Below, piece after piece: positions 8,208 through 42,148 of a stretch of 64,000 nt of DNA (within the stretch, counting starts at the first letter, position 1; the number at the start of each line of letters is the position of its first letter). Source of the DNA: Bacteroidaceae bacterium. GTDB taxonomy: Bacteria > Bacteroidota > Bacteroidia > Bacteroidales > Bacteroidaceae. The notes beneath the pieces are model-generated. The model was given only the letters and a program-made list of their open reading frames with translations, ran no database searches and was not told where the DNA came from. The stretch covers positions 65,523 through 129,522 of the forward strand of contig JAZRFE010000018.1 in NCBI GenBank assembly GCA_045661205.1. The letters are read 5' to 3'. A program made the position numbers and the translations under genes.

Positions 8208-9308
8208 ATGAGTAAGAACATTTTATTTAGTAACACAAGTTGGCGTTCCCATCTAATGCGTGAAACATCAGAACGTAGAACTGCCGACGAACAAAAAGAG
8301 GACAAATGCAACAAAGTAACCTCTTTCCAAACAACACCCGACCACGAGCATTATGCGAGTGAGAAACTGCTATTTGACAGCCTCCAGACGATAGTCGAAA
8401 GAATTGTTCAGGAGATAAACCGCGCCTACGAGTCGGAGAATTTTATCTACAACGAACTATTGAAAGAGAAATCCTTTGCCGAAGAGTGCGATGCGGCATT
8501 GAAGGCTGCAATAGAGAGTGAAGAGAAACGCGCGTCTGACGAGGAAAATGCAATCAAAAAAAGTCTTGGACAGTTACAGCAATTCGTCGAGTACAAAAAT
8601 CTTTTACAGCTTAATTCTCTTATCATGTATGGCTATTCGGCCATTGGTACAGGAGAAGCGGTTAATGCTGTACAAGTTTTCGCAGGATGTTACAACAGCA
8701 ATGGTGAACTTAAAGAGGATGCTTCGATACTTACTTCCATCTATCAGTTACCATTGGGACAGGCATACCGACTCAACTGTGATAAACTCGAAGATGATTC
8801 ATTGGCAAATATTTTGCTTTATGACAATGAGGGAAACATTTGTCCATTCACTCTTGAATTGAAAGATACGATATTTGTTCCCGACAGAGCAATTTCTCGT
8901 ATCGGCCTATCCTATAAAGGCACTGCACCAACAGTGGAGTCGTTTAATCTCGAAAACATAGTTGCTACTGTTGCCGATGGCACAGTAGACAGAAGCAAAC
9001 TATCCACCGAAATGCTCGAAGAGATTGCCAACATCGCACAATCGGTGATTAACGAAATGAAACGAGCAATAAATTCCGAGGAGAGTATTAAGAGCGAACT
9101 GCAAAATCAGGTATCATCTAATGCGGTTGCTTGTGAAAAGACACAGTCTCAACTCGAAAATGAGATTATACGTTCGACAGTGGTAGATAAAAACCTGCTC
9201 AATCGCGTCGAGAAGTTGGAAAGTAGATGTGTTGTGCTCAGCGAAACAGAATACAATTCCATAGAATACAAAAACAACGATACAATTTATTTTGTAATTG
9301 AGGAATAA
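8208..9308 (+). CDS. coiled-coil fibre-like protein (phage tail-fibre-like)
   Basis: The track ORF starts at a GTG (8181); the first ATG is at 8208 (MSKNILF...). N- and C-terminal heptad-rich helical segments flank a central non-helical domain. The C-terminal end SETEYNSIEYKNNDTIYFVIEE resembles endings common in phage fibre proteins. Confidence 0.5.
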   Translation: MSKNILFSNTSWRSHLMRETSERRTADEQKEDKCNKVTSFQTTPDHEHYASEKLLFDSLQTIVERIVQEINRAYESENFIYNELLKEKSFAEECDAALKAAIESEEKRASDEENAIKKSLGQLQQFVEYKNLLQLNSLIMYGYSAIGTGEAVNAVQVFAGCYNSNGELKEDASILTSIYQLPLGQAYRLNCDKLEDDSLANILLYDNEGNICPFTLELKDTIFVPDRAISRIGLSYKGTAPTVESFNLENIVATVADGTVDRSKLSTEMLEEIANIAQSVINEMKRAINSEESIKSELQNQVSSNAVACEKTQSQLENEIIRSTVVDKNLLNRVEKLESRCVVLSETEYNSIEYKNNDTIYFVIEE

Positions 9309-9310
9309 TC

Positions 9311-9484
9311 ATGGCAATATACAATTCAAATAAAGAGATAATATTCGTATCAGCAGGAAAAAGAGTCATTGCATTCATTGCAAAAGGGGCATCTATTATA
9401 TGGCAAGCGGTACGTAGTTGCTTTGGTGCAGGATGCTGGCGAGACGATAAATCGTGGAACGATAATGAGTGTTGGAAAGATTAA
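9311..9484 (+). CDS. small Cys/Trp-rich hypothetical protein (57 aa)
   Basis: Below the ORF-track size cutoff; translated by hand as MAIYNSNKEIIFVSAGKRVIAFIAKGASIIWQAVRSCFGAGCWRDDKSWNDNECWKD*. It starts 2 nt after the upstream stop and ends 19 nt before the likely start of the giant gene. Confidence 0.5.
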   Translation: MAIYNSNKEIIFVSAGKRVIAFIAKGASIIWQAVRSCFGAGCWRDDKSWNDNECWKD

Positions 9485-9503
9485 ACAAATAAAACAAAAT
9501 ATT

Positions 9504-12500
9504 ATGGCAAATTATAGCGAAAATCCGATATTGTCATCGGATGTAAATTGGAACGAGGAAGACCCTGCAAACGGTCTTTTGTGGTCAGGAAAATCTATCA
9601 GAGAGTTCCAACAAAAGAAAAACAAAGAGACAGAGATAAACACTGCAACAAAGGTGGGAGCATTGCATTTCGATGCTTCTACAATGACCCTTTATCAGTT
9701 TGCAAGCGAAGAGGCAAAAGAGTTATGGCTCAGTAACAACAACGAGGGATTGTTGCTGGGTGTTGTACCATTCAACTTCACAGGAACTCTCAACCAGATT
9801 AAAATTATCAACAATCTTGGCTCAACTAATCTTTATTACACAACTGAGAGCGAAGCTGTGGTTTTGAGTGTTGCTTTTCTTTCTCAACAAAAAAGCATCA
9901 CAGATGTTTCTTGGAGTGACGTGAACGAAGATTTTCGTGTTTCTGTAAGTGTAGACAGAGGCTCAAACGGCATTTATGAGACTATTATATCCGACCATTT
10001 GCTACTAAACGGTAAACTATTTACTGTCGATGTTAAGAAATATCTCGCCAATGGTGCCAATCGCGTAAAGATTTCGGTAAAAGGTGTGGACACAGGAATC
10101 AGCAAGAGTCTTGTTCTTACAGTAAACATCACTTCTATGTTTATCAGACCTGCCAATTTTACGTGGAATACTCCATTTATCGAGGGTAATATCTACCCTA
10201 TTGGAGGTATGAATATCGGTGGCAATCTGCAAAAACTCCTCAAAGTAAAAGTCAAAGGTAACAACTACGAAAAAAACTACACTGTTAATATTGGCTCGTC
10301 TACATACATTAACACTGCATACTACTATTCCGGAATGGAATTTCCCAGCATGGGCAGTGGCATCTATAACATTGAACTGTGGCTCGATGCTAACGGACTC
10401 GAAAGTGAGCATCTTAGCTATAATATCATCTGTGTTTCAAAAGCCGACGTAGCCACAGCGCAATTTGTAGCTCTAAACGAGATGAGTGATAGTGTACCTA
10501 ATGGTATTGAGAAAAACATTTTCGCCTACACTCTCTATAATAAGGGAGAGCAACAAAGCGACATAACAGTTCAAGTCGGTATTGATGGCCGCTTGCTTGT
10601 TGACGAAACACTCTACAATGTATCAACAGGCAGCAAAGTATACTACACAGCGGCAGTTGAATATGAAAGTGAAGCTGATAACCTTGAAGTAGATGTAACG
10701 GTAACAAACGGTAATACTGTCAATATCAAGAAACCATTGGATAACAGTGCGTTATACCCTGCCACAAAAGGTGCTACACTCTATATAAACGAGTCGAGAC
10801 GAAACAATACGCAGGCTAACAAAGAAAAATTTATTAATGAAGCCACAGGCGAAGAGATCAATGCAGTTTGGGAAAACTTTATTTTTGATACTGATGCCCA
10901 TGCTACCGACGATACAGGTAGAAAATGTCTCAATGTTCCCGCAGGCTCAAAAGTAACAATTGCAGCACAACCCCTTGCTAAATGGGGACGTGAAGGCAGT
11001 AAGACCATAGAGTTTGCATTCAAGGCGAGCAACGTCTCCAACTACAACGAGAACATCATCACCATAGCCAATGCCGACGGTAAAGGCATTCAAATCAAGC
11101 CCAAGAATGTACTTGTGCTCATGAGTGGTACAGCCAACAATAATACCCTTCAAAGTTACAACCTAAAAGACGAAGAATATGTTCATCTGCTCATCACCAT
11201 TGTCAAAGGTTATCAAAACTATGGCAACCTTTGTCAGATATACGTTAATGGTGTAAAAACCACCTCATTCGACTTCGGAAGCGAGAATTTCATCGTCTCC
11301 GCCAACATAGTTATTGGTTCATCTTCTGCCGATACTTATCTTTACAAACTGCGTGTCTATGAGCAGGGATTCGAGTGGGCTGCTGTCACCGACAACGTAG
11401 CAAACAGTCTCCCTACTCACGAAGAAAAAATAGCATACATAAATAATGTGAAATCCATCTTGGATACTAACTATAATGTAGACTACGATGCTGTTTACGG
11501 CAAACGTAATACGTTTGTCGTGGAGATGATTGATGGTGCCTCGTTCCCCGATAAACTTCACCCGGCAGGTGGTAAATGTAACACATGGATAAACATTGTA
11601 GACCGCATAGACGATGAGCTTGACGAGGAATTCAAACAACTCTTCAGTGGTGAATTAATCGCCAATCAAGAGATTGAAGGACAAGGAACAACTGCTATGA
11701 CCTATCTACGATGGAACACCCGTCAGAAATTAGGTGCAGAGTATGGCAAACGCAGAATAACTGCCAAAAAGAATGTTGCATCCTCTATGCACTCACATAA
11801 AATGGGTGCAACAAGAATGTTCAATGAACTTCACCATGCCATCGTTGGTGCAAACGAAGGTAATGGCCGAGTTGCTGTGTTTCAATATCCCGTTTATGGT
11901 TTCCAAAAGTTTACGGAAGGTACAACAACCACTTACCAATTTATCGGACTTTACACCATAGGTCCGGACAAAGGCGACAAAAAAACATTTGGATACGACA
12001 AGTACGAAGAGAGCATCATACATCTTGAGGGTGCCGACCACACCCCTCTGGGTGTTGGATTTGACTACCCATGGAGCGAACTTAAGTACAGTTCGGCAAA
12101 AGAATCACTCGGAGCTGTCAATACCAAAGGCGAAACAGTCTCGGCATGGGAGGTTGGTGCCGTCGGTAAACTTAGCACAGATAATGAGAGCGACGAAGCA
12201 GCTGTAAAGGCTGTGCTCAACACCGAGTTCCGCCCTGCCTATGACATTGTTTACAATTCCTCGACATTCATTAAAGGAATCACCTCTGAAGAGTATACCG
12301 AAATGACTGCCGACCCTATTGCATGGCGTAAAAAAGAGACTGTTGATGGAAAATCATATAGCGAACTTGAGTTCTATGTCGATGGAGAGTACGACCTATA
12401 TTACTACAATCTACAAGAAGGCAATTACAAAAAGAACGGCATAAACCTGCTTGCGCAGACAGGAGTGACATTTACTTCGGAAACACTTGCTCAAAAAGAT

Positions 12501-15062
12501 GAGAAGTTCAAAGCATGGCGCAAAACACATTTCAAAAATAACATGCAGAAATATTGGCATCTTCAAGATGCTCTATTTCATGATGCCCTACTCATCCTTA
12601 TAGGAGCATCCGACAACTTTAAGAAAAACAACTACCCTTATAAGTTCAAATCTCTTGCTGATGGCGGATTGTGGCAAAGAAGACAAGATGACCTCGATTC
12701 TATCTTCGACATCCTCAATCAGGGTTTTGCAGGAAAATCATACTCGGTACTCTTTGGTGACAAAAACAGCGGCGGAAGCATATTTCGTGGCGAAAACTCC
12801 GTATTCCACACTCTCATACAAGAGTGTTACCCCGAGGAGTTTAAAAAGATGATGCACAAAATCCTAGACAAGATGTCATCATTCTCCCCTTACGGTCAAG
12901 GAAGTATAGAGCGTCTCGTAGGTTACATAAAATCTCGTTTCTGGGATTATGCACAGGAGTATTTCCCCTCATCGGCCTACAACAAAGATGCAGAATGGAC
13001 ATACGAGGAGGCATGGAAACTTTGGGGTACACAATACACTGGTGCCGATGTGCATCCGCTTCAACAATCATTAGGTGCTCACTACGAGGCCGAAAGAGAT
13101 TGGGTAACATTGCGTATGCTATTCGTGGCATCGTACTACAACTGGGGAATATTCTCCTCGGGAAGCACCGATACATCCGAGGGACAGCTTACCTACCGTA
13201 CAGCCAGCGGAAAAACATTTACAATAACTCCGGCCATAGACTTTAATCCCACAATTCTTGTAGGTGATAGTGAGGTAAACTCGGCAGGCAGACGAATAAA
13301 TGCTGGCGAGCACGCAACTGTCATTGTTCGAGAAGTGGGAGCTAACGATACTCACGTCTATGTTCAGGGACTTGACTGGATAGCCGACCTCGGCGACCTA
13401 AGTGATTTGCAACTCGATGCCAACAATCCCGAATTGCTGATAGCCTCTAAGCGACTGAAAAGCCTGAAACTTGGTGGTGAGAGTACAGTAACCTCTAACT
13501 TAGGCAAGCTCAGTATAGGCAGTATGCCTTCACTCGAAGTAATAGATGCCCGCAATCTCGCAAACTTGTCGGGAGCAATCAACTTGCAAGGATGTCCAAG
13601 ACTAAAAACCGCTCTTTTTGCAGGAACAAACATAAGTTCAATATATCTTGCAGACGGTTCCAGAATAACCACCTTGCAGACAAGCGATAAGATGTCACAG
13701 TTGGTACTGAAAAACCTTCCACTGCTTACTGATGAAGGTTTTGAATTTACTGACGGAACAACTGTCGAATATTTGCGAATAGAAAATTGCAAGCATATAA
13801 ACGCGTTTGAACTTCTTAAGCAGTTGTACAACCTCGACAGTAAGAAACTCACTTCCATACGCGTTGTAAACTTCAATTATGTAGGAACTCGCGAAGACGT
13901 AACTATACTTATAAATCTTGCTAATAATATTGACAAAGATGGCAACTATAAAGAGTACAACGGTATCGATGCAAATGGCAATATCATTCCCGATGCTGAA
14001 GGCAGAAACTCTGTACCTGTGATAGAGGGCCGTATAGAGATTCCAAGTGCACTATATAGTGATGACATAGCCATTATTAACAATATGTACGAAGGCAAAT
14101 TGGCAATCATTTCCACTACCGGAACCTATTATGTCAAATTCGCCGACCCCGAAGTGCAGAGGATTTGTGTCGAGAATTGGGGCGATGGTACAGGTATCAC
14201 TTTGGAGCAAATAAAAAGTATAAGCAATATTGATAAAACTTTTTACAACAATACTCTCATCGAAACATTTGATGAATTAGGTAAGTTTACTTCGCTAACA
14301 AGTCTAAAGCCAACAGCTTTTAAAGGTTGTACTAATTTGAAAAGTATAGATATAAGCAACATTACTGTCTTTGGTTCTGAATGGCAGAACGGTCCATTTG
14401 AGGATACTGCGCTGGAAAGCGTGACTCTTGCCGAAGGTATGACCGAAACAGGTCAAAGACCTTTTATGAACTGCTCTAAACTGAAAAATGTGAAACTACC
14501 ATCAACGTTGATATATCTTGGAACAACCGAGTATGCTTATGGCAGCGGTGTATTTTATGGAACAGCAATAGAAGATATTGAACTACCAGCCCAACTACAA
14601 AGGATAGGCTCTAATGTGTTTTTTAAATGCCCGTTGAAAAGCATAAAATGTCCCAATACAGTGACCTACATAGGACAAAATGCGTTCCTGCGTTGTCCTT
14701 CACTAAAGGAAGTATATATGGGTGAGAATATCACCGAGATTAAGGCGAGTGTATTTGAGTATTGTACTGCATTGCGAACTGTGATAATAACTACAGTTGT
14801 CCCACCCACGGCTGGCAATAATATTTTTAGAGGTCTTACAAATTTTAATATATATGTGCCGAGTGAAAGTGTAAATGCTTATAAAGAAGCTACAAACTGG
14901 GTGAGTTATGCAAATCAAATTAAGCCTATCAATGTGGTATCTGTGCGACCGGGAATAGAAAAAGTCTCCGAAGGTGACCTCTATAAAGTGGGTAACATCT
15001 ATTGGAAAGCCGCTAATGGTCAAGACTTGTTGGAATGGGTAGAAATTTTTAATTTAGGATAA
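9504..15062 (+). CDS. giant multidomain protein: Ig-like repeats, LamG-like, CotH-like, LRR and BspA-type LRR
   Basis: The track ORF 9369..15062 overlaps the small ORF; the likely start is ATG 9504 (MANYSENPIL, about 1,852 aa). No signal peptide and no T9SS-like C-terminal domain are recognisable. A LamG-like segment lies at about 10900..11375 (IGSSSADTYLYKLRVY). A CotH-like segment lies at about 11500..13150 (IEGQGTTAMTYLRWNTRQKL; NNYPYKF...LWQRRQDDLDSIF). LRRs run from about 13370, and BspA/LRR_5-type repeats lie at about 14318..14930. Confidence 0.75.
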   Translation: MANYSENPILSSDVNWNEEDPANGLLWSGKSIREFQQKKNKETEINTATKVGALHFDASTMTLYQFASEEAKELWLSNNNEGLLLGVVPFNFTGTLNQIKIINNLGSTNLYYTTESEAVVLSVAFLSQQKSITDVSWSDVNEDFRVSVSVDRGSNGIYETIISDHLLLNGKLFTVDVKKYLANGANRVKISVKGVDTGISKSLVLTVNITSMFIRPANFTWNTPFIEGNIYPIGGMNIGGNLQKLLKVKVKGNNYEKNYTVNIGSSTYINTAYYYSGMEFPSMGSGIYNIELWLDANGLESEHLSYNIICVSKADVATAQFVALNEMSDSVPNGIEKNIFAYTLYNKGEQQSDITVQVGIDGRLLVDETLYNVSTGSKVYYTAAVEYESEADNLEVDVTVTNGNTVNIKKPLDNSALYPATKGATLYINESRRNNTQANKEKFINEATGEEINAVWENFIFDTDAHATDDTGRKCLNVPAGSKVTIAAQPLAKWGREGSKTIEFAFKASNVSNYNENIITIANADGKGIQIKPKNVLVLMSGTANNNTLQSYNLKDEEYVHLLITIVKGYQNYGNLCQIYVNGVKTTSFDFGSENFIVSANIVIGSSSADTYLYKLRVYEQGFEWAAVTDNVANSLPTHEEKIAYINNVKSILDTNYNVDYDAVYGKRNTFVVEMIDGASFPDKLHPAGGKCNTWINIVDRIDDELDEEFKQLFSGELIANQEIEGQGTTAMTYLRWNTRQKLGAEYGKRRITAKKNVASSMHSHKMGATRMFNELHHAIVGANEGNGRVAVFQYPVYGFQKFTEGTTTTYQFIGLYTIGPDKGDKKTFGYDKYEESIIHLEGADHTPLGVGFDYPWSELKYSSAKESLGAVNTKGETVSAWEVGAVGKLSTDNESDEAAVKAVLNTEFRPAYDIVYNSSTFIKGITSEEYTEMTADPIAWRKKETVDGKSYSELEFYVDGEYDLYYYNLQEGNYKKNGINLLAQTGVTFTSETLAQKDEKFKAWRKTHFKNNMQKYWHLQDALFHDALLILIGASDNFKKNNYPYKFKSLADGGLWQRRQDDLDSIFDILNQGFAGKSYSVLFGDKNSGGSIFRGENSVFHTLIQECYPEEFKKMMHKILDKMSSFSPYGQGSIERLVGYIKSRFWDYAQEYFPSSAYNKDAEWTYEEAWKLWGTQYTGADVHPLQQSLGAHYEAERDWVTLRMLFVASYYNWGIFSSGSTDTSEGQLTYRTASGKTFTITPAIDFNPTILVGDSEVNSAGRRINAGEHATVIVREVGANDTHVYVQGLDWIADLGDLSDLQLDANNPELLIASKRLKSLKLGGESTVTSNLGKLSIGSMPSLEVIDARNLANLSGAINLQGCPRLKTALFAGTNISSIYLADGSRITTLQTSDKMSQLVLKNLPLLTDEGFEFTDGTTVEYLRIENCKHINAFELLKQLYNLDSKKLTSIRVVNFNYVGTREDVTILINLANNIDKDGNYKEYNGIDANGNIIPDAEGRNSVPVIEGRIEIPSALYSDDIAIINNMYEGKLAIISTTGTYYVKFADPEVQRICVENWGDGTGITLEQIKSISNIDKTFYNNTLIETFDELGKFTSLTSLKPTAFKGCTNLKSIDISNITVFGSEWQNGPFEDTALESVTLAEGMTETGQRPFMNCSKLKNVKLPSTLIYLGTTEYAYGSGVFYGTAIEDIELPAQLQRIGSNVFFKCPLKSIKCPNTVTYIGQNAFLRCPSLKEVYMGENITEIKASVFEYCTALRTVIITTVVPPTAGNNIFRGLTNFNIYVPSESVNAYKEATNWVSYANQIKPINVVSVRPGIEKVSEGDLYKVGNIYWKAANGQDLLEWVEIFNLG

Positions 15063-15063
15063 T

Positions 15064-15267
15064 ATGGATATAAGGGAAGAAAATGGCATTACAATAATTA
15101 CTGCCGAAAATGGAAAAGTGTTACAGAGGATAAGTGACGGTGTGTTATTCGGAGACGAGGTGTGGCTTGGTAAGGCATTCACAATAGGAGGAAAGAGACT
15201 TAAGACCCCTATGCAAGAGCTACCCGAACATTTTACCGAAATTGATAATAGCGATGACCATGAATGA
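15064..15267 (+). CDS. small hypothetical protein (67 aa)
   Basis: ATG lies 1 nt after the giant gene stop. It occupies the position of the small ORFs usually found between fibre and holin genes in phages. Confidence 0.5.
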   Translation: MDIREENGITIITAENGKVLQRISDGVLFGDEVWLGKAFTIGGKRLKTPMQELPEHFTEIDNSDDHE

Positions 15268-15745
15268 TTTTATTACTTTCATTAAAGCTACCATCATTGG
15301 ACTTTTGTCGGAAATTCTTGCCTTTTTTGCGCCTATCGAGAGCAATTTTATAGCCCTCGTATGGCTCTTTGGTATGAACTTTGTGTTTGGTCTTTTGAGT
15401 GACGTGCTGCGAGGTAAGGATTTCTCCATGCGCAAGGCGATAACCTGCATTACACATGCGGCAATGTTTTTTGCGTTGTGTGCATCACTCTATGGCATTG
15501 GCTATTTTCAGAACTTATGCGAGGAGATGCTCAACCAATGCGTGTCGTCGTTCTGTTGGATTTTAGTATATTGTTACTCTACAAACATTGTAAGAAATGT
15601 ACGTACTATTTTGCGCAGTGAAACACCTGCATATAGAACACTTGACCTACTCTACAATGGCTTGACTCTTGCATTTGTAAGGACTCTGCCGTTTATTGCT
15701 GAAATTCTGAAACAGAGAAAGGAGGAACGCCATGCAAACAAGTGA
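15242..15745 (+). CDS. holin-like membrane protein
   Basis: 167 aa (the start may be M5 or M7, at 15254 or 15260). It has about four hydrophobic helices and a charged C-terminal tail (KQRKEERHANK). It sits immediately upstream of the endolysin and overlaps it. Confidence 0.6.
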   Translation: MIIAMTMNDFITFIKATIIGLLSEILAFFAPIESNFIALVWLFGMNFVFGLLSDVLRGKDFSMRKAITCITHAAMFFALCASLYGIGYFQNLCEEMLNQCVSSFCWILVYCYSTNIVRNVRTILRSETPAYRTLDLLYNGLTLAFVRTLPFIAEILKQRKEERHANK

Positions 15746-16190
15746 TATTGGATTGAGGTGTATAATTGCCTTCGAGGGTATGGAATTGAATGCCTACAAG
15801 TGTCCTGGCGGAGTATGGACCATAGGCATAGGACATACAGGAGATGTAGATGGTGTGCCCATAAGCAAGGGAATGCTAATTACAAAGGCCGATGCAATGG
15901 AACTGTTACGAGAGGATGTTAAGCGCATAGAGCGTTATCTGAATCGTCAGCCATTTGTTGGGCGTTTGACACAAGGCATGTTCGACGCACTGGTGAGCTT
16001 TATATTTAATGTGGGTACATCAGCTTTTGAAACCTCGACAATGAGAAAGCAACTGTGCATAAACGCTACAAGCGATGAAATAGTCAAAGAGTTTCATAAA
16101 TGGGTTTATGGCACCGTGAACGGTAAAAAGAAGAAACTCGATGGGCTTGTGAGACGTCGCAAGCACGAAGCTGCCATGTTCATCAATTAA
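15732..16190 (+). CDS. GH24 phage-type lysozyme (endolysin)
   Basis: 152 aa. Contains FEGMELNAYKCPGGVWTIGIGH, which matches the E-x8-(D/C)-x5-T catalytic pattern of T4/lambdoid lysozymes. Confidence 0.88.
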   Translation: MQTSDIGLRCIIAFEGMELNAYKCPGGVWTIGIGHTGDVDGVPISKGMLITKADAMELLREDVKRIERYLNRQPFVGRLTQGMFDALVSFIFNVGTSAFETSTMRKQLCINATSDEIVKEFHKWVYGTVNGKKKKLDGLVRRRKHEAAMFIN

Positions 16191-16192
16191 GT

Positions 16193-16585: not shown

Positions 16586-16592
16586 AAAGAGT

Positions 16593-16630
16593 AAATCCTG
16601 TCTATTCGTAGAAATAGACAGGATTTTTCT
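16593..16630 (+). terminator. strong hairpin terminator between convergent genes
   Basis: Perfect 14-bp stem AAATCCTGTCTATT / AATAGACAGGATTT (16593..16606 / 16613..16626), 6-nt loop, T-rich tail. Confidence 0.8.
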
Positions 16631-16647
16631 GATATATTCTTAATGTA

Positions 16648-17239: not shown

Positions 17240-17253
17240 GTAGCGCATAGCTA

Positions 17254-32761: not shown

Positions 32762-32777
32762 TAGCCAAATTTGGCTA
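32762..32777. promoter_or_regulatory. perfect 16-bp palindrome, candidate operator
   Basis: TAGCCAAATTTGGCTA lies in the divergent region between the repressor and ORF 32927. It ends 32 nt upstream of a TATATTTG -7 box. Confidence 0.45.
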
Positions 32778-33919: not shown

Positions 33920-34201
33920 TCAACCTTCGAGTATTTTTACAAGTTGAAACTCACTGCGACAGCACAACTTTATAAAGAGTCCGCTCAACACGCCGAGTAA
34001 AGTAATCTCACACTTCTCTTCGTCGATGCCGAAGTCATCGTGAAACAGATATTCTTCCTCGCCATCGATACTTGCAAAAACCTCCACAGGATAAGGCCCT
34101 GCCTTATGTACTCTCACTCTTATGTCCCCTCCAAGAGATTTTATAGGAACCGTTTCCCATACATCGCCATTCTTGGCAAATGAAATATTCACAACAGCCA
34201 T
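33920..34201 (-). CDS. small hypothetical structural-module protein
   Basis: 93 aa. It starts 4 nt after the upstream stop. Confidence 0.45.
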   Translation of the reverse strand: MAVVNISFAKNGDVWETVPIKSLGGDIRVRVHKAGPYPVEVFASIDGEEEYLFHDDFGIDEEKCEITLLGVLSGLFIKLCCRSEFQLVKILEG

Positions 34202-34205
34202 ATAA

Positions 34206-34838
34206 CTACTTGTTATTGTTACACAAAGCGGCAGCCAGACTCATGAAGGCATTCGCCGCATCATATTTCTCAAACACATTACACACAAGTCCTGCACACT
34301 GATAGGCAACAGCTTGCAATAGAGAATCGTTATTCGATGCAAGCCCCTTGCTGCTATTATAGGTACCCTCGTAGAGTAAATACTCCACAGTGGGTATCGA
34401 ATCCTCTTCAACAGGATAAACATAAAGCAGTATCCCCTGGGCGGACGGCACCTCTATACAAACAGGAGATGATTTTCCCGCGCGTGTGTATTTGTTTGCT
34501 TGCGCAGCGTCTGCCACTGAGCCCGGAGAGGAAACATTGTAACATGGGTGTAGCCAATTATCCAACTTAAACGAAACGAGTCTGACATAATCCTCAGGTA
34601 ATATAATCACACCATATTCACCATTCCAAAGAGAGAGATTGCAGTTTGCCATACTCTTCCCATTCAACATGCCACTCTTTTTATTCATCTGAACAAAAAG
34701 CACAGCCTCGGGAAGCAGCTCCGAAATATATTTATCAAGCAACAATGTGTCGTCGGTAATAAGCGAAATGCTATTCTCGCTCTGCGCTTCGTTGAGCAGT
34801 GTGCGCACCTTCTCTTTAAGTACACTATCGGCCATCAT
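34206..34838 (-). CDS. head-tail connector/adaptor-like protein
   Basis: About 210 aa. The ATG at 34838 forms an ATGA overlap with the upstream stop. It sits two genes downstream of the capsid gene. Confidence 0.45.
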   Translation of the reverse strand: MMADSVLKEKVRTLLNEAQSENSISLITDDTLLLDKYISELLPEAVLFVQMNKKSGMLNGKSMANCNLSLWNGEYGVIILPEDYVRLVSFKLDNWLHPCYNVSSPGSVADAAQANKYTRAGKSSPVCIEVPSAQGILLYVYPVEEDSIPTVEYLLYEGTYNSSKGLASNNDSLLQAVAYQCAGLVCNVFEKYDAANAFMSLAAALCNNNK

Positions 34839-35341
34839 AACCAATTAGGGAACGAAATGCGCAATTCATCTGCTTTGGCACGAACAGCCCCTTTATTCTG
34901 AAGTTCCGAAAGAGAAACCTTATAAGGCTCACCCATCAGCACACTACGCGCCTGCTGTACGTTGGTCACATTTACAAAGACCTCCTGTTTGCAATTCTCA
35001 TCGACAGGAGCGGCCTCGGCAACCGACTCTTTTTCTTCAATTTTTTCAGTGGAACCTATCACTATCTCACCGTTGCGAAACTGCTCACTCTCCTCTATGG
35101 CCTTCTGGTAAAGAGGGTTGTCGGTGACATAATTTGCAGGAGTCATTCCCGCCGAATTGATTGAACCACCTGTAAAGTCCACACGCAACAGAGCCTTTCC
35201 CACTCTGAAATAGCAACTGCGCTCTATCTGCCCTCTAATCTCGTAAGTAACTTTTCTTTTCATAAACCAAATAACTTTTCTTAAAATGCGTCGCAGTCTG
35301 TAAGTTGCATATTTGTGTGCATTCCCCACAAACTGCGACAC
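34835..35341 (-). CDS. hypothetical head-associated protein
   Basis: 168 aa (alternative start M27 at 35263, MKRKVTYEIRG). It has an acidic middle and a C-terminal helix-extension-helix-like segment (VSLSELQNKGAVRAKADELRISFPNW). Confidence 0.45.
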   Translation of the reverse strand: MSQFVGNAHKYATYRLRRILRKVIWFMKRKVTYEIRGQIERSCYFRVGKALLRVDFTGGSINSAGMTPANYVTDNPLYQKAIEESEQFRNGEIVIGSTEKIEEKESVAEAAPVDENCKQEVFVNVTNVQQARSVLMGEPYKVSLSELQNKGAVRAKADELRISFPNWL

Positions 35342-35361: not shown

Positions 35362-36981
35362 CTAAGCAGCCATGATTTCGCCGGTGAACTCAATCCAGCT
35401 GCTACCGGTGAAGGTTACCACTGTTCCCGCTGCGAATTTCACCGTAGTACCGTCTTCCTTGAAGACATCGGCTGTAAGAATTACAACATCGTTCACAGCA
35501 GGCGACTGAGGCAGAGAATCTGCGCTTATCACACGCGAAGCACCGGGAATGCTTCTTGCTGCTGCGTTAGCACCATTTACCCAAATGTGCGAGTAACCCT
35601 TCAAACAGAGACAGTCGATAGTCATCACCACCTCTCGTTTAGCCTCCTCACCCTCTACATTCTCGCTCTTGCAATCCTCGTTTTTCATCCAATAACGCAC
35701 AAGACCATTCTCGTCGATAAGACCGCCGCAATGCGAGTAACCGAGGGCGTCGAGTGTGGGGTCGTGAACAAGGTCTATATCACCGAATACTGTGTGAATC
35801 TTTGTACACTCAAGGTCGAATACCTTGCTGCCTGTCACAGTGATATTCTTGTGAAGAGTTAAGTCGATTTTCTGAATATCGTTCAGCAACTGCTTACCCA
35901 ACAACCAGATAGCCTTCTTCGAGCAATTATAGCCGGTGAATTTCACCATTGAAAGGTTGATTAAGTCAGCAAAAGTGATGGTTGCCGAGAGGTCGTACTG
36001 ACGTTTGAACTGCCAGCGCAAGCCCTTAGAGAAGTAATCCCATTGATAACCCATGGCTGCATCCATAGCCTGCACCTTAAACTTACCGGGCTGACCTACC
36101 CACGCTGTGCGACAGCTCTCCAGACGGAACTGACGAAGAACAGCCTCGGCAATCTGCGACTGACTAAAAGGCAAGCGTTTTTTCTGCGCCTTGAAGTAAT
36201 CACTCACAATGCTGTTACACAACTGTTTCTGCAAATACATGCGTTCGGGAACGGGAACAATGGTGCTGGGAGCAATAAACTTCTGAGTCTCATATGCAGC
36301 CGAAGACAGAAGTATAATCTCAGTGCCGGCAGGGATTGTGGGCACTACGCAATAGTCATCGGTAGCATTCACTTTAGGGCCATTGACAGCCATGGCGATG
36401 GGAGCCTCTGTGGTGCTGTTCTTACCCACGAAGAAAAGCATCAGATCCACACCGGGAAGCTCTGTCTGACCAGACGAGTCGTAACCGTTTACACCTTTAC
36501 AGATAGCCGTGTAGTACTCCTGAAAGATTTTGCGGTCGGCAGTTGTGGCAAAGGGAATCTCGGCACGTGTGGCATTGATGCCTTCATACTCGGCACTTGT
36601 AGTAGCTTTAGAGCGTTTCTCGTCTATGAGATAGTGGTCTACCTCGAACGAAGTTACAGGCACCTGACGAGTAATTCTGCGTTTGATGGTGTCAATAATA
36701 CTCTCGTCGCTTGCAATCATTGTGATTTTCGAGTCAATCTCGGGCTGGATAAACTCGCCACCGAGTTCCGAAGCATTAGAAACGGTAGTAGCCTCACCGC
36801 TACCATGTGTCGCATAACCCGCAATACCCTTTGAAGCTGTGGGTGAACCGGGCGCAACCACCGTTGCCATAGCCATTAACACACCTCCCGTGCTCTCCTC
36901 GAAGAGATACAAGGCAATGCTCACCAATGAAAGAAGAACAAACAAAGGATTCTTCTTAACAAATAAAAAAAGTTTTTTCAT
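35362..36981 (-). CDS. putative major capsid protein (HK97-fold)
   Basis: 539 aa. It lies directly downstream of the scaffold-like gene. The N-terminal pattern PEIDSKITMIASDESIIDTIKRRI..VPVTSFEVDHYLID resembles the N-arm/P-domain start of HK97-fold capsid proteins. The alternative start at 36876 removes a hydrophobic leader. Confidence 0.6.
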   Translation of the reverse strand: MKKLFLFVKKNPLFVLLSLVSIALYLFEESTGGVLMAMATVVAPGSPTASKGIAGYATHGSGEATTVSNASELGGEFIQPEIDSKITMIASDESIIDTIKRRITRQVPVTSFEVDHYLIDEKRSKATTSAEYEGINATRAEIPFATTADRKIFQEYYTAICKGVNGYDSSGQTELPGVDLMLFFVGKNSTTEAPIAMAVNGPKVNATDDYCVVPTIPAGTEIILLSSAAYETQKFIAPSTIVPVPERMYLQKQLCNSIVSDYFKAQKKRLPFSQSQIAEAVLRQFRLESCRTAWVGQPGKFKVQAMDAAMGYQWDYFSKGLRWQFKRQYDLSATITFADLINLSMVKFTGYNCSKKAIWLLGKQLLNDIQKIDLTLHKNITVTGSKVFDLECTKIHTVFGDIDLVHDPTLDALGYSHCGGLIDENGLVRYWMKNEDCKSENVEGEEAKREVVMTIDCLCLKGYSHIWVNGANAAARSIPGASRVISADSLPQSPAVNDVVILTADVFKEDGTTVKFAAGTVVTFTGSSWIEFTGEIMAA

Positions 36982-37011: not shown

Positions 37012-37809
37012 TTACGCTTTCAATGCAGCATCAAGCAAGGTGTTTTCTTTGGGGCGTCGAGTTGTCTGTGCAGGGGCCACACTGTTCATGCCCTTGGGAA
37101 GACCATCGCCAAACTCCTCCTGCATACGTCTGATGTTCGTATTTCTGCCTTTTATGTTTCCTGCGGCAAAGGCATCCTCCACGTCTTGCTCATATCTTAT
37201 CGCATGTTCCAATGCCTGACACACTTCGGGTGTATAACTTCCCGACAAAATGGGGAAAACAAGCTGTTCCCACACATTGTCCATAAAATCGGCAGGCTCA
37301 TAACCATGCTCGCGGCAGAAGTTCTCAATCACAGGACGGCTTCTTTCGAGGTTGGCCTCATACTCTCTGCGATTACGTGCCATCTCATAGGCCTCTTTGC
37401 GACGCTCCTCGTCCATGAGCAACATCTCTTCGTACTCGGGCGAACCCTCTTCAAAGTCGAGAAAAGATTTTCCATAATATCGTGCCATAGCAGCGTGAGA
37501 ACTACGTTTGCCCTGCACGACATCCGACAACAGTTGGGCAAGACGAGGGTCGAGCTCAAGGATAGAAGCCAGACGCTCATTCTGTTCATAATTACTTCGG
37601 AAAAACTCTTTCAGCATCTCTTGCGACTCGGGAGAGTTCAATTTGAAAGACTTTCCAAAAAACTCCTGCAACCACTCTTCAATGGCTGCATAAGGATTTG
37701 TCACAGTGCTTTCTGTTTGCACTGCCTGCTCGGCTCCGGGCTGAGCCTGCAACTCTGCATTATGCTCTGCGGCCGGTACCTGTTCCTGATTTTGATAAAT
37801 TTTATCCAT
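37012..37809 (-). CDS. scaffolding-like protein
   Basis: The likely start is ATG 37809 (MDKIYQNQEQ). The protein is acidic, predicted to be all-helical and Glu/Arg-rich (EERRKEAYEMARNRREYEANLERSR). It lies immediately upstream of the capsid gene. Confidence 0.5.
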   Translation of the reverse strand: MDKIYQNQEQVPAAEHNAELQAQPGAEQAVQTESTVTNPYAAIEEWLQEFFGKSFKLNSPESQEMLKEFFRSNYEQNERLASILELDPRLAQLLSDVVQGKRSSHAAMARYYGKSFLDFEEGSPEYEEMLLMDEERRKEAYEMARNRREYEANLERSRPVIENFCREHGYEPADFMDNVWEQLVFPILSGSYTPEVCQALEHAIRYEQDVEDAFAAGNIKGRNTNIRRMQEEFGDGLPKGMNSVAPAQTTRRPKENTLLDAALKA

Positions 37810-37912
37810 ACAATTGATATTTATTTGTTTCGTCGGCAAAGTAAAGGCTGAATGCAAAGTTTAAGGTTGCAGAATTAACACTTTGAGAATTGCAGTCCAT
37901 CATTTTGGGCAC

Positions 37913-38055: not shown

Positions 38056-38484
38056 TTAGAAGTTAGTGGTGCCTGCGTCGCAGTATGAGTCTACAATTTC
38101 CGCTCTGTATATAGTTTCATTAATTCGCGAAACCTTTACATAATCGTTAGTCTCTGCCTTAAGTAGATAGAATAGCTCACATTTACTTTCTGATGTATTA
38201 TTGACCCTGAAGCATTTATATTGCCCAACTTCTATTCCTGATATAGAACCATCTTTAACACAACTATTTGAAAGGTACCCTTCCCACCATTTATTTGTAT
38301 TATCACCTGATGGAACATCTGGTACGACAATATCTACAGAATTATTTGATGCAGCAATCATGTTCTCTGTACTTAATCTGTGCTCCTTTATTTCAGGATA
38401 AATAAATATTTTTTTCATTGTTATTAATGACGATTTTGTGAGTTTAATGTGTTTTCCATTTGCAAATTTATATAAAATAATCAT
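38056..38484 (-). CDS. hypothetical protein, AT-rich cargo gene
   Basis: 142 aa (the likely start is M23 at 38418, MKKIFIYPEIK). It is visibly more AT-rich than its neighbours and has its own terminator. Confidence 0.45.
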   Translation of the reverse strand: MIILYKFANGKHIKLTKSSLITMKKIFIYPEIKEHRLSTENMIAASNNSVDIVVPDVPSGDNTNKWWEGYLSNSCVKDGSISGIEVGQYKCFRVNNTSESKCELFYLLKAETNDYVKVSRINETIYRAEIVDSYCDAGTTNF

Positions 38485-38652: not shown

Positions 38653-39093
38653 ATGGAACAGAACAGTGAAATCACCGTCGGTGAAATGCGAAAACAGGCC
38701 ATCATCGACACCTTTTTTGAAACAATGAAAAATTGCCGCAAAATCGATCCTTTTGCCTCTTTGGAGAAAATCATCGAAAAGGCAGCAAATACAAAAGCTC
38801 CGCGTTTCTTTGTCTCTTTTGAAAATGCCCGACGATTCGTATCGATGCTTGTACGCAAGAAGAGACTGCCTCTTGTGAACAAAAACAAGCTGGAGATGTA
38901 CAAAGAACTCTTTCGTCGCTACAAGAAACAGCGTCAAGAAGATTTTACAAGCAGAGTCATCAACTACACCCTACTCGAAAAAATCATTGAAGAGCCGGCG
39001 CCTTCGTTCTATCTCGACACAGAGACCTTCCGTTGTCTGCTCTACAAGGCACTTAGAGAAAGAAATCACGAACTTTCATTCTGTAAAATCTAA
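38653..39093 (+). CDS. small protein with an internal tandem duplication (possible DNA-binding or small-terminase role)
   Basis: 146 aa. It has two repeats, LEKIIEKAANTKAPRFFVSFENARRFVSML and LEKIIEEPAPSFYLDTETFRCLLYKA. It is the first gene of the operon that ends in terL. Confidence 0.5.
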   Translation: MEQNSEITVGEMRKQAIIDTFFETMKNCRKIDPFASLEKIIEKAANTKAPRFFVSFENARRFVSMLVRKKRLPLVNKNKLEMYKELFRRYKKQRQEDFTSRVINYTLLEKIIEEPAPSFYLDTETFRCLLYKALRERNHELSFCKI

Positions 39094-39099: not shown

Positions 39100-39612
39100 A
39101 TGAGACGAAAAGAAGAGCTTAAAATTTCCACCTACGATGTTACGCAACGTATATATACATATAGTTACTATGTTGGCGAATCTCGGCGAAACAGTGGGTT
39201 GCCCATAAAACTTGCGGCAAGTATGCAGGCATCGCCCGATGACCATCATCAGCTAAACGACCACATGAATGTTGCTGCAAGCGAATTGGTAAAAATGATA
39301 AACAGTACTTTTTGTGAATGCACTACATCAAGTGTGCCCGACAGCGAACACGCCGGCTACTCAATTCTTAAATTCAGGCTCATCCCCCCGCAATACTTCC
39401 CCATGCACTTGTTTGGCGAGTTGCAAAAAAACATGACAAGCTATTTGGTGATGCGCACCCTGCAACAGTGGATATTGCAACATAAACCCGACGAGGCTGT
39501 AATAACCACGTCAGAGGCCGAGAAACTTACCATTCAACTGCGTGAACTGATGAACTGTCGAGTGAAACCGCGTAAAGGTCAAAACGCAACAAAAACAAAC
39601 ATAGAACTTTAA
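39100..39612 (+). CDS. connector-like protein, paralog 2
   Basis: 170 aa. The C-terminal segment MTSYLVMRTLQQWILQHKPDEA...LRELM aligns with paralogs 1 and 3. Confidence 0.5.
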   Translation: MRRKEELKISTYDVTQRIYTYSYYVGESRRNSGLPIKLAASMQASPDDHHQLNDHMNVAASELVKMINSTFCECTTSSVPDSEHAGYSILKFRLIPPQYFPMHLFGELQKNMTSYLVMRTLQQWILQHKPDEAVITTSEAEKLTIQLRELMNCRVKPRKGQNATKTNIEL

Positions 39613-39616
39613 TGAA

Positions 39617-40090
39617 ATGGAATACAATATCTTGATAAAAAAGGAAGATCTTGTCCACCGGATAGACCTTCTTACCCACTATCACGCCGAGAGTGAAAAG
39701 CGTAAAGATATAAACGCTGATATAGGCGAGACTTCGTTCGACGACGAAGAACTTTTGGAGGGCTTTCTCACAAAGGCTGCAAACGAACTTATTGCAGCAC
39801 AAGCGGGCCGTTTCGAGAATATATCATTCAAGAGCAATCGCAACTATATTGATATAACCTTTGTTGCGAGCAATGAAAATGGTGAGCATCTGACACCCAT
39901 CCTAAAGCAGGCAATAACAGACTATCTTGTAAATGAGATAATGACGCAATGGTTGCTGATACGCTATCCCGCATGGAGTCAGACATACATTGCAATGAGA
40001 GGCGAACTACACTCACAAGTAAAAGAACTTTTTGCAGCTTTTTGCAATAAAAAAATCAGACGACGCTCCACAAACCTCGCAGGAATATGA
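39617..40090 (+). CDS. connector-like protein, paralog 3
   Basis: 157 aa. The C-terminal segment ITDYLVNEIMTQWLLIRYPAWS...VKELF aligns with paralogs 1 and 2. It overlaps terL by 4 nt. Confidence 0.5.
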   Translation: MEYNILIKKEDLVHRIDLLTHYHAESEKRKDINADIGETSFDDEELLEGFLTKAANELIAAQAGRFENISFKSNRNYIDITFVASNENGEHLTPILKQAITDYLVNEIMTQWLLIRYPAWSQTYIAMRGELHSQVKELFAAFCNKKIRRRSTNLAGI

Positions 40091-42117
40091 CGCTTATGGC
40101 AGAGATCCCACAAATGATAGAAGAAAATTATAGACGGTTGAAGATAAATTCGGCCGTCTATAATCCGGTGACCGGCGAAGGCTCCACATCCGTTGCGCGC
40201 AAATGGATTGAGATTGAAGGTTTTCCCCTCACACGTATGAACCTTCCATTAGATATGTTGAACGAAAAACTCACAGAGGAACTTATCGAAAAGGGAGCGC
40301 ATGGGTTTCTTGTGGCTCATGGTAACAAAAATCCAACCCATAGGAATATAATAACATTATGGCTTGAATTTTGCCGTAAGCGCATAAAATACGACTTTGA
40401 ATATTGGGCGAAAACGATGGCTGTAATCTCGGACAAAGGTCGAGGACGCGACATACCTTTCACTCTCAACCGCCCACAGCGTTTCTATCTTAGCGAAATG
40501 GAAAAGCTGCGTTGCGCAGAAAAACCGATAGACATCATATTATGCAAAGCGAGACAATGGGGAGGCTCTACACTGACACAGCTCTATATGCTTTGGATAC
40601 AGCTTGTTCACAAACGCAATTGGAACTCGGTGATATGTGGCGATGTAGAGAAACAATCCTCGATAGTTGCCGGTATCATGGCCAAGGTGATTAACAACTA
40701 TCCTTTGTGGGCCACTGGAGGCAAAAAACTTACCACTACGCCCTATCAAGGCACACAAAAGACAAGAACAATAAGCTGGAGCAACAGCCGATACTCTCTA
40801 GGCTCTTCGCAAAAGCCCGACTCTCTTCGAAGCGAAGATATAAGCATGGCCCATCTCACCGAGGTCGGGCTGTGGAAAGCTACTGCCGGAAGAAAACCCG
40901 AGGATCTTGTACAGTCAATCTTTGGTTCGATAGCCGGAGGAGCATACACTGTTAAGGTAATGGAGTCCACTGCAAAAGGAGTAGGAAATTTCTTTCATCG
41001 CACATGGATAGATGCCACAGCCGGACGAAACAATTTTACCCCCGTATTTGTACCCTGGTACACTATCGACCTATACAGCAAGCAGCTCACTCCTGCCGAC
41101 TACACACCATTCATAGAAAGCATGAACGAGTACGAGCAACAGCTTTTCGCGTTAGGTGCCACACTCGAAGCCATCGCATGGTACCGAGACAAAAGGCGTG
41201 AAATGCCCGAAGAATGGCGACTCTTCTCCGAGTTTCCCTCTACTGCAAACGAAGCCTTCCAAAGCACAGGCCGACGCGTATTCAAAATTTCGTACGTTAA
41301 AAACCTACGTGAATATTGTGTTCCTCCTGCGTGGACGGGTGACATTGTAAGCAGGGAAAAATATGATGTAGAGCACAGAGCAAATAAAAGTATTGTTACT
41401 TTTGAACCATTGCAACCAGGTGAACCCGACGACAAGAATGTGCTCAAAGTGTGGCTGATGCCCGACACACAACACAACTACCGCGACCGTTACATCGTAA
41501 CAGTGGATGTTGGTGGTGTCTCCGAAAAAGCCGACTACTCCTGCATAATGGTTGCAGATAGACTGCCCATGCTCGAAGGTGGTGTTCCCGAAATAGCAGC
41601 CTGCTGGCACGGACACATTGAGCACGATAAACTCGCGTGGAAAGCTGTTGAAATAGCAAAAGCATACAACAACGCATTGCTTGTGATAGAGTCGAACACC
41701 CTGGAGACAGAGGGTACCGAAGGCGACAATTTCGAGTATATACTCAACGAGATTGCCGGGAAATATAGCAATCTTTACAGTCGTACATCCTCGCAGGAGA
41801 TAAGACAAGGACGGCCACGCCGTTGGGGATTTCACACAAATCCATCCACCAAGCCCATGGTCATAAATTTCCTTATAAAAGCCATACGCGATGGTTTATA
41901 TGTGGAACGATGCATCGAGACCACGTACGAACTCGACTTATACGAACTAAAAGAGAATGGTAAAGAGATGGGAGCCGTCGAAGGCAACCATGACGACCGC
42001 GTAATGGCAACAGCAATCCTTATATGGATATGTTACAACTACCCTTTGCCCACAGCTCAGCAAACAGAGAAAACAGGAAGAAGCCGTACAAGGATAGTAA
42101 GTGAGGCTAGTATATAA
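40087..42117 (+). CDS. terL: terminase large subunit
   Basis: 676 aa. ATPase motifs are a Walker A-like CKARQWGGST, a Walker B-like ISMAHLTE and the coupling motif FPSTANEAF. Nuclease acidic motifs are YIVTVDVGG, LLVIESN and GNHDDRVMA. Confidence 0.88.
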   Translation: MTLMAEIPQMIEENYRRLKINSAVYNPVTGEGSTSVARKWIEIEGFPLTRMNLPLDMLNEKLTEELIEKGAHGFLVAHGNKNPTHRNIITLWLEFCRKRIKYDFEYWAKTMAVISDKGRGRDIPFTLNRPQRFYLSEMEKLRCAEKPIDIILCKARQWGGSTLTQLYMLWIQLVHKRNWNSVICGDVEKQSSIVAGIMAKVINNYPLWATGGKKLTTTPYQGTQKTRTISWSNSRYSLGSSQKPDSLRSEDISMAHLTEVGLWKATAGRKPEDLVQSIFGSIAGGAYTVKVMESTAKGVGNFFHRTWIDATAGRNNFTPVFVPWYTIDLYSKQLTPADYTPFIESMNEYEQQLFALGATLEAIAWYRDKRREMPEEWRLFSEFPSTANEAFQSTGRRVFKISYVKNLREYCVPPAWTGDIVSREKYDVEHRANKSIVTFEPLQPGEPDDKNVLKVWLMPDTQHNYRDRYIVTVDVGGVSEKADYSCIMVADRLPMLEGGVPEIAACWHGHIEHDKLAWKAVEIAKAYNNALLVIESNTLETEGTEGDNFEYILNEIAGKYSNLYSRTSSQEIRQGRPRRWGFHTNPSTKPMVINFLIKAIRDGLYVERCIETTYELDLYELKENGKEMGAVEGNHDDRVMATAILIWICYNYPLPTAQQTEKTGRSRTRIVSEASI

Positions 42118-42120
42118 ACA

Positions 42121-42148
42121 GGAAGGTGCAGCAAAAGCTGCACCTTCC
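42121..42148 (+). terminator. hairpin between convergent terL and the TRIC-family gene
   Basis: Perfect 12-bp stem GGAAGGTGCAGC / GCTGCACCTTCC with an AAAA loop. No clear T run follows. Confidence 0.5.

Follow-up and report, generated by a model that had tools for sequence, protein, structure and literature searches.

Two phage-derived operon blocks among core genes of a ruminant-gut Bacteroidaceae bacterium as candidate parts of a domesticated, gene transfer agent-like particle system

What two blocks of phage genes are doing among core genes, about 15 kb apart in a bacterial chromosome, is the question raised by a 64-kb stretch of DNA (hereafter the window; contig JAZRFE010000018.1 of assembly GCA_045661205.1, positions 65,523 to 129,522) from an uncultured ruminant-gut Bacteroidaceae bacterium. 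An initial annotation had suggested that the two blocks, here called locus A and locus B, form a dispersed, domesticated system resembling a gene transfer agent (GTA). The comparisons reported here indicated that they are probably two operon blocks of a chromosomally fixed, integrase-less, multi-locus phage-particle system. Its source was likely a family of temperate podoviruses (SU10-type capsid, P22-type portal, about 58-68 kb), the genes of which would have been kept in a clade of ruminant-hindgut Bacteroidaceae. The reading favored is that of a domesticated particle system; real particle-mediated transfer of DNA is a narrower part of it, proposed tentatively and with some doubt.

The open reading frame (ORF) listing and the family scans confirmed both loci, and all of their ORFs were intact, with overlaps between neighbors. 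Locus A extends over 8.15-16.6 kb on the plus strand and contains six genes. The fibre or receptor-binding genes and the holin, endolysin and spanin genes first described for it were all recognized; only its start had to be moved, as the regulatory part begins at 8147. The features of locus A are given below, where cassette refers to the loci of related genomes that correspond to locus B, and numbers preceded by L denote the related stretches compared.

8147..8194, plus strand: promoter of locus A, with the 20-nt cassette motif AAGTGTTATTTCGGCAACCT (8147-8166), a 23-nt spacer and TTTGC (8190-8194); 25.0 bits with the position weight matrix (PWM) of the motif
8208..9308, plus strand: A366, a coiled-coil fibre-like protein of 366 amino acids (aa) with a weak Phage_tail_C (tail-tip) match at its C-terminus
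9504..15062, plus strand: A1897, a large receptor-binding-type virion protein (1852 aa from the ATG at 9504, 1897 aa from 9369; phrog_24896 and phrog_14959) with C-terminal BspA-type leucine-rich repeats (LRR)
15064..15267, plus strand: A67, a short ORF conserved in phage relatives, where it likewise comes after the large protein (54-61% identity in L090-L093)
15260..15745, plus strand: holin-like protein with three transmembrane (TM)-like segments and a weak Phage_holin_4_1 match
15732..16190, plus strand: endolysin (Phage_lysozyme, E 1e-37; phrog_7)
16205..16585, plus strand: u-spanin-like protein of 130 aa with a lipobox-like N-terminus and a C-terminal TM segment

Locus B extends over 32.0-42.1 kb and consists of four parts: the CI gene on the minus strand, the divergent gene B125, a minus-strand operon (scaffold, capsid, B168, B212, B93 and B142) and a plus-strand operon (B146, B170, B157 and the large terminase, TerL). 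The repressor, scaffold, capsid, connector-like and terminase genes assigned to it at the outset were found again in the family scans.

32030..32662, minus strand: CI-type repressor with a helix-turn-helix and a Peptidase_S24 domain
32762..32777, no strand: perfect 16-bp palindrome TAGCCAAATTTGGCTA between CI and B125, also found in L005 and L006
32825..32872, plus strand: cassette motif, 23-nt spacer and TTTGC, 5' of B125 (28.7 bits)
32927..33304, plus strand: B125, a 125-aa protein divergent from CI and conserved in the cassette loci
33386..33814, minus strand: B142, a c0-family paralogue (phrog_19255-like)
33920..34201, minus strand: B93, a small ORF of the head operon, conserved in the cassette
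34206..34844, minus strand: B212, head-to-tail adaptor-like (phrog_22135; syntenic with gp45 of phage BKO1-TP3)
34835..35341, minus strand: B168, an ORF 3' of the capsid gene, conserved in the cassette
35362..36876, minus strand (ORF extendable to 36981): major capsid protein of the SU10/DUF5309 type
37012..37809, minus strand: scaffold-like protein (family scan; synteny with the temperate TP phages described below)
37864..37883, minus strand: cassette motif 5' of the scaffold/capsid operon (29.6 bits; likewise placed in about 57 related loci)
38056..38484, minus strand: B142b, a low-GC accessory ORF (GC 0.32; GC at third codon positions, GC3, 0.27)
38653..39093, plus strand: B146, first gene of the packaging operon (phrog_27246; homologue 5' of TerL in TP phages)
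39100..40090, plus strand: B170 and B157, two c0-family paralogues (phrog_19255-like)
40087..42117, plus strand: TerL (phrog_2; 40% identical to the TerL of BF1-TP2)

The capsid assignment was made because the protein aligns with DUF5309/SU10_MCP proteins of Bacteroides phages, has a weak SU10_MCP match, and belongs to a family whose profile matches a solved capsid chain (9in6_M in the PDB, E 3e-7). The homologue of B212 in L217 showed a weak SU10_adaptor match, and a PDB sequence search with TerL gave no match. By position only, B146 is a candidate small terminase. The palindrome at 32762-32777 is a candidate CI operator, likelier to be so than the 20-nt motif, while a role of B125 as a switch or activator is a guess; its single-sequence AlphaFold (AF2) model (pLDDT, the predicted local distance difference test, 42.6) was too poor for a structure search. 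B142, B170 and B157 (about 150 aa each, cluster c0) represent the family with the most copies in the cassette. B142b, flanked by the divergent head and packaging operons, had homologues in L008 and L137 only, and is probably a recently acquired accessory gene outside the core system.

The genes that separate the two loci are cellular, as initially described: Lon (E 3e-209), Tgt (E 3e-107), PanB (E 1e-67) and a GH2 glucuronidase (E 3e-190) were identified in the family scans, together with GidB/RsmG, a 4HBT thioesterase and further cellular genes. No integrase or replication gene was recognized by these scans anywhere in the 64 kb, the tRNA search of the window found none, and att-like, inverted or direct repeats at the locus borders gave chance-level matches only. 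That the two loci are devoid of integrase and replication genes, an adjacent tRNA and att repeats had been noted at the outset, as had the absence of a portal gene from the window, which is taken up further below. Phage structural and packaging genes are therefore present in this chromosome free of integration, excision and replication functions, as in a GTA, and the marks of an intact temperate prophage (integrase, att sites, a replication module, contiguous structural genes with portal and tail) were not found in the window.

The complementarity of the two loci, one with the head and packaging genes and the other with the adsorption and lysis genes, was borne out by intact phages. The chromosomal prophage L089 carries in one stretch a giant protein, portal, TerL, scaffold, SU10_MCP, four small genes, a homologue of A1897 (1880 aa, 47-49% identity), holin, lysozyme, a spanin-like protein, c6 (950 aa) and an integrase. 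The temperate Bacteroides phages BF1-TP2 (PQ571263), BKO1-TP3 (PQ571269) and BS-TP4 (PQ571277), which were induced and are 64-68 kb long (PMC12694917), share the gene families of the window (TerL, 40% identity). In these phages the scaffold and capsid genes are followed by genes for proteins of about 145 and about 212 aa, then by one for a very large protein and by the lysis genes, with TerL divergent from this operon; the phages also possess a P22-type portal, a giant polyvalent protein, a c6 homologue, an integrase and a repressor. Because of the layout of L089 and BKO1-TP3, the genes of loci A and B can be recognized as consecutive parts of one late operon in complete phages of the family. 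The TP phages, L089 and L216 resemble the window in gene families and local order; nevertheless, they are 58-68 kb long, have integrase, replication and recombination modules and lack the motif, whereas the window loci have the motif and none of these modules. Close relatives with one contiguous, integrase-bearing prophage, which the initial annotation had named as evidence that would speak against it, were not found: such prophages are distant, their capsids being only 23-55% identical to that of locus B, and they have no motif. Active phage relatives with 55-73% capsid identity and their own portals occur in the same habitats.

A scan for the capsid gene, with one genome per GTDB species, revealed 92 relatives, of which 80 loci were fetched. 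Their capsids were 68-97% identical, and almost all came from metagenome-assembled genomes of Bacteroidaceae from ruminant hindguts. The gene order of the cassette was near-constant, with B146, two c0 genes and TerL leftward, the head operon rightward, B125 leftward and CI rightward; the head operon comprises scaffold, capsid, B168, B212, (B93), a holin-like and a spanin-like gene, c6 (about 960 aa) and B142. In 22 loci the gene after CI begins the ATP synthase operon (atpD-atpC-atpB), several loci (7-13) have murB and an MBL-fold hydrolase next to TerL, a TolC/HlyD/MacB pump flanks the cassette in 6, and no integrase or replication gene was seen in the flanks of the fetched loci. Since IMG/VR contained only capsid relatives of 63-67% identity, the cassette lineage is distinct from circulating phages. 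With c6, PDB searches (single sequence and profile) gave no match, and c6 showed no similarity to A1897 or A375.

The capsid gene was intact in all 80 loci. The ratio of nonsynonymous to synonymous substitution rates (dN/dS) was 0.055 for the capsid and 0.09 for TerL, compared with 0.05-0.12 for adjacent host genes. Apparent stops in some cassette ORFs were an artefact of over-extended ORF starts; the TerL gene of L006, for instance, is intact. In the sub-clade of the window (L005-L013) capsids were 88-97% identical, and the holin, spanin and c6 genes are gone from between B93 and B142. L006 has both flanks of locus B as in the window, and L005 and L009 have the flank on the CI side (trx, MBL, rsmG, panB, lon). 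In syntenic relatives dS exceeded 1 in host genes as well as in element genes, and dN/dS was 0.02-0.2. Thus, given that the same sites are occupied in relatives with saturated synonymous sites (L006, L005 and L009 for locus B, L149 for locus A), both window loci are old residents, and the clade-wide conservation at syntenic core positions under purifying selection that is expected of a GTA was found. The marks of a decaying prophage (pseudogenes, relaxed selection, strain-specific presence) were not, and neither were those of a satellite (integrase, a primase or replication module, variable integration sites). The concern that the loci might be strain-specific and under relaxed selection was removed by the presence of the cassette in at least 80 species and by the dN/dS of its capsid.

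Furthermore, the two loci share a promoter motif. Its consensus is AAnTGTyAWWWCnGCAACCT, followed after 23 nt by TTTGC, which resembles the Bacteroides -7 box. With up to 3 mismatches allowed, the window has three copies of the pattern AAGTGTTATTTC(RR)CAACCT, where 0.02 would be expected: 43 nt 5' of the first gene of locus A, 5' of B125 and 5' of the scaffold gene, always in sense orientation and with TTTGC at exactly 23 nt. A PWM built from the related cassette loci scored these three sites at 25-30 bits and nothing else in the 64 kb at 12 bits or more, and thirty shuffles gave no match of 20 bits or more. In related loci the genes 3' of PWM matches were scaffold (57), the c0 gene of the packaging operon (24), B146 (17), B125 (3) and c54 (3), and among the matches listed the motif also precedes packaging, portal and receptor-binding protein (RBP) operons. 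The intact phages L001, L002, L004 and L080-L093 had no match of 13 bits or more; the sole match among the intact phages tested was in L003 (14.2 bits), inside the early region. This absence from the intact relatives indicated that the motif is specific to the chromosomal lineage, locus A included, and the motif-bearing operons at several loci would be under common regulation.

A metagenome scan with the motif pattern yielded at least 120 stretches, with many cassette loci and several new contexts among them. Among the matches listed, further motif-driven operons encode fibre-like and LRR proteins (L208, L173). The motif was also seen 5' of an unrelated operon, in L123 (1924-12238) and L164 (633-8889), which encodes proteins of about 200, 264, 230, about 1500, 152, 552, 214 and 235 aa and has no BLAST similarity to any cassette protein; it may be a second lineage using the motif promoter. 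One further match, on the metagenome contig L109 (144-4321), precedes a 1316-aa RHS/YD-repeat toxin-like protein, and could be due to chance or to a co-opted promoter.

The portal was found in the relatives. Among the matches listed, the motif in L197, L131 and L214 precedes an operon of c54, a small ORF, c72 and a P22-type portal; the c72 protein (1118-1715 aa) has an LPD23 domain and resembles polyvalent ejection proteins. Host ligA follows this operon in L197 and L214, L131 ends inside the portal gene, and in L214 (1-3351) c54, c72 and the portal come immediately after atpA and atpG at the end of the atp operon. A single contig, L217, contains the packaging and head operons, B125, CI, a complete nine-gene F-ATPase operon (10916-17956) and then the start of the c54 operon, that is, an 80-aa ORF and c54, the stretch ending before c72 and the portal. 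L220 is unsplit: TerL through CI is followed by c54, c72 and the portal next to ligA, in about 20.5 kb that contain no integrase or replication gene. A complete particle gene set including the portal, not found in the window, is thus present in the relatives L220, L214 and L197. With L217 split by the atp operon and L220 unsplit and provided with a portal, the splitting of the gene set by core genes is a state that recurs and is tolerated, and the lineage possesses a portal. The idea that cassette genomes have no portal was ruled out when the motif scan found these operons. In many species the portal operon is separated from the CI end of the cassette by a complete F1Fo ATP synthase operon and a DUF4369 thioredoxin-like gene. 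The CI gene of the window is followed directly, with a 4-nt overlap, by a DUF4369/AhpC gene, as if the atp and portal operons had been removed from between.

As for locus A, its site in L149 comprises the c5968 gene (93% identical), the motif, holin (86%), lysozyme (72%), spanin (59%) and thioesterase (89%). Since L149 has the motif and the holin, lysozyme and spanin genes between the same two host genes, the site is conserved and the lysis operon an old resident there. Between L149 and the window dS was 1.7-2.1 or saturated, for host and lysis genes alike, and dN/dS was 0.02-0.17. The u-spanin-like protein has cassette homologues at 30-57% identity, and the N-terminus of A366 (ILFSNTSW) resembles that of a motif-driven 629-aa fibre in L208. 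The AF2 model of the first 1150 residues of A1897 (pLDDT 79.7) is a chain of beta-sandwich domains. Its best Foldseek matches were uncharacterised gut-phage LRR/CotH/internalin-like proteins, some of them crAss-like (E 1e-63 to 1e-26), and in the PDB it matched generic Ig and macroglobulin domains only. The diversity-generating retroelements of cultured temperate Bacteroides phages usually target proteins of about 2000 aa (PMC12694917), and this together with the structural matches makes a role of A1897 in host recognition reasonable. IMG/VR contained no relative of A1897. Stand-alone BspA-type LRR proteins (450-1055 aa) often adjoin the cassette (L016, L026, L031, L036, L046, L053, L057 and L074); in the window this domain is instead the C-terminus of A1897.

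From these genes the following course of events can be proposed. The CI/S24 repressor would hold the switch, probably by way of the palindrome at 32762-32777, and after its loss the promoters with the 20-nt motif would fire together; that B125 reads the motif is a guess. Scaffold and capsid would build procapsids on the portal supplied by a third motif-driven locus (c54, c72, portal), known from the relatives. B146 and TerL would then package DNA, which would be chromosomal because these genes can neither excise nor replicate, and B212 and B168 would complete the head. Locus A would provide the fibre and the LRR receptor-binding protein and, finally, lysis by holin, lysozyme and spanin.

Several observations weigh against such a system. 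A1897 (65-71%), A67 (54%), holin (84%) and lysozyme (78%) all have their closest relative in L091, a phage-like contig. The capsids of L091 and locus B share no more than 23% identity; hence, loci A and B are not simply the two halves of one ancestral prophage. At the locus A site of L149, moreover, the fibre and the large protein are not present, so that the fibre genes of locus A differ between genomes. The affinity to L091 and the state of the L149 site suggest that the fibre and RBP genes were inserted later at the site of the lysis operon, or replaced earlier ones, through recombination with a circulating phage. The base composition, which was also compared, agrees with this later arrival, as GC3 is lower in locus A (0.41) than in locus B (0.47) and the core genes (0.48 +/- 0.04). 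Further points of the same kind are that no motif copy stands 5' of the packaging operon of the window, that L005 has no TerL module, that no portal, c6 or giant-protein remnant was found anywhere in the 64 kb (the window copy may be incomplete), and that in the clade of the window the 10 kb on either side of locus B are likewise free of portal, c6 and ejection-protein genes. The capsid distances do not track those of AtpD (r 0.15, not significant), so strictly vertical descent is unsupported and descent may not have been strictly vertical. The capsid protein has the same length as in intact 58-kb phages, and for this reason the capacity of the head may exceed the size of the gene set, unlike in classical GTAs. 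Purifying selection alone would also fit a still-mobile element.

The comparison with known systems places these points in context. In the GTA of Rhodobacter capsulatus (RcGTA) and other alphaproteobacterial GTAs, the fibre and lysis genes lie apart from the domesticated genes for head and packaging; these GTAs are co-regulated, chromosomally inherited and under purifying selection. RcGTA is siphovirus-like, its portal being part of an HK97-type head cluster; the host regulators CtrA and GafA control it, and about 4 kb are packaged. Separate fibre/lysis loci and purifying selection are common to RcGTA and the window, whereas the window system is podovirus-derived and has a phage-type repressor. 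Host regulatory control, which is expected of a GTA, was not found, the only recognized regulator being the CI/S24 repressor inside the element. Capsid-forming phage-inducible chromosomal islands and other satellites resemble the window in having a small gene set with their own capsid, terminase and repressor; however, att sites, movement from one site to another, an integrase and a replication module are typical of satellites, and none of this applies to the window or the cassette.

The closest published analogue is FpGTA of Faecalibacterium prausnitzii, which is of podovirus-like origin, has no integrase or replication genes and is near-ubiquitous in its gut clade (PMC12946183). It consists of a 10.5-kb head/packaging operon (small terminase, TerL, portal, scaffold, major capsid protein) and a 5.5-kb operon with fibre, RBP, holin and endolysin about 125 kb away, and its particles, with 8.5 kb of packaged DNA, were shown experimentally (PMC12946183). 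The division into head/packaging and fibre/lysis operons is the same as in the window, the system of which is known as a set of genes and is likened to FpGTA by gene layout. Phylum and ancestral phage are different, and the Bacteroidaceae system has its portal in a third operon with an LPD23 polyvalent protein, a CI/S24 repressor and a 20-nt promoter motif. The literature search found no GTA described in Bacteroidota, Bacteroidales or the rumen, and none is reported in PMC12946183.

Of the initial proposal, the complementary and conserved gene set lacking integration and replication genes stood, and the shared motif was added to it, while a phage-type repressor in place of a host regulator, locus A fibre genes from another capsid lineage and the lack of TerL in L005 speak against its GTA part. 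A multi-locus, co-regulated, domesticated system is well supported by the gene comparisons, and its GTA activity is that of an unproven candidate. That it is the first GTA-like system of Bacteroidota, in which a podovirus of about 20 genes was domesticated in the ancestor of a large clade of ruminant-gut Bacteroidaceae and then broken into three or four operons among core genes (for example the ATP synthase operon, ligA and lon-tgt-panB), with the motif defining one regulon and the fibre/RBP operon refreshed from circulating phages, is conceivable but somewhat less likely than its opposite. In a sharper variant, a head of about 58 kb may take up the whole split element with the embedded core genes in one headful, re-entry being by homologous recombination.

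The alternative that survives best, although unlikely, is a helper-dependent or interference element, in which the capsid, scaffold, terminase and lysis genes and CI immunity would act only during infection by a related phage of about 58 kb (L083/L216 type), either borrowing its portal and tail or poisoning its assembly. The lack of portal, c6 and ejection genes in the clade of the window speaks for it, as do the active relatives in the same habitats, the immunity that a CI-type repressor would confer and the exchange of locus A with active phages. Nevertheless, no integrase, primase or other satellite hallmark was found, the position is fixed across species, most relatives have their own motif-driven portal operon (among the matches listed), and the lineage-specific motif is not in the candidate helpers.

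Improbable, too, is a grounded prophage that spreads itself by in-situ headful packaging of the lateral-transduction type, a head of about 58 kb carrying the whole 34-kb region and homologous recombination taking the place of an integrase. Lateral transduction is documented in Bacteroides (PMC12946183), capsid and scaffold are as long as in the 58-68 kb relatives, the split element is no larger than 28-34 kb, no integrase is present, and capsid and AtpD distances are not correlated. The architectures that differ between clades, however, fit slow rearrangement better than repeated replacement, and dS is saturated at syntenic sites.

Ordinary cryptic-prophage debris, that is, two unrelated decaying remnants devoid of current function, would agree with the missing portal and tail-hub genes in the window, with the GC3 of locus A (0.41 against 0.48 in the core) and with the different capsid lineages of the nearest relatives of the two loci. 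Plain decay is nonetheless very unlikely from the gene comparisons, and is already largely refuted by the selection, motif and dS results: all ORFs are intact despite dS above 1 relative to syntenic relatives, dN/dS equals that of host genes, the cassette occurs in 80+ species and the motif is far above chance. Finally, a single recent prophage split by inversion or translocation in this strain, in spite of the opposite orientation of the loci, the contiguity of their genes in intact phages and a GC skew sign change near 16.6-17 kb, is scarcely credible and appears excluded, with both sites occupied in relatives with saturated dS, no inverted repeats at the borders and the nearest contiguous prophages at 23-55% capsid identity. 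A model with one inversion was also considered and rejected: the late operon would become contiguous again, yet CI would still lie 15 kb from it.

Additionally, some features of the surroundings were observed. The cumulative GC skew has its maximum at about 16.6-17 kb, the right end of locus A. The skew is positive on the left of this point and negative on its right, where it is independent of gene strand, and the peak may mark a replication terminus or an old inversion breakpoint. The thioesterase gene and the gene 17254-18498 are separated by a perfect 38-bp palindrome (ACAAAAATGGTCAGAGATT/AATCTCTGACCATTTTTGT) at 17204-17241, and the second of these genes is not present in the syntenic contig L149. 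Between TerL and the MBL-hydrolase/murB pair, a 2.5-kb block (42169-44619) encodes a glycine transporter, a DUF6565 protein and a fusion of ADP-ribosylglycohydrolase and dual-specificity phosphatase. This block is also in L006, while in several other species TerL abuts MBL-hydrolase/murB directly, and it looks like an insertion in the clade of the window.

The domesticated particle system proposed here is a credible, albeit unproven, first candidate for a GTA-like system in Bacteroidota. Bacteroidales exchange DNA at very high rates, and, if the proposal is true, this exchange would have a concrete candidate vehicle in a capsid-encoding system that is conserved in at least 80 species and co-regulated. 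The motif PWM, together with the portal, capsid and TerL profiles, could serve to find every component of the system in any genome and to predict the regulon. It would also be a domesticated phage dismantled by chromosomal rearrangement while selection keeps its parts, as where the head locus and the portal operon have an ATP synthase operon between them.

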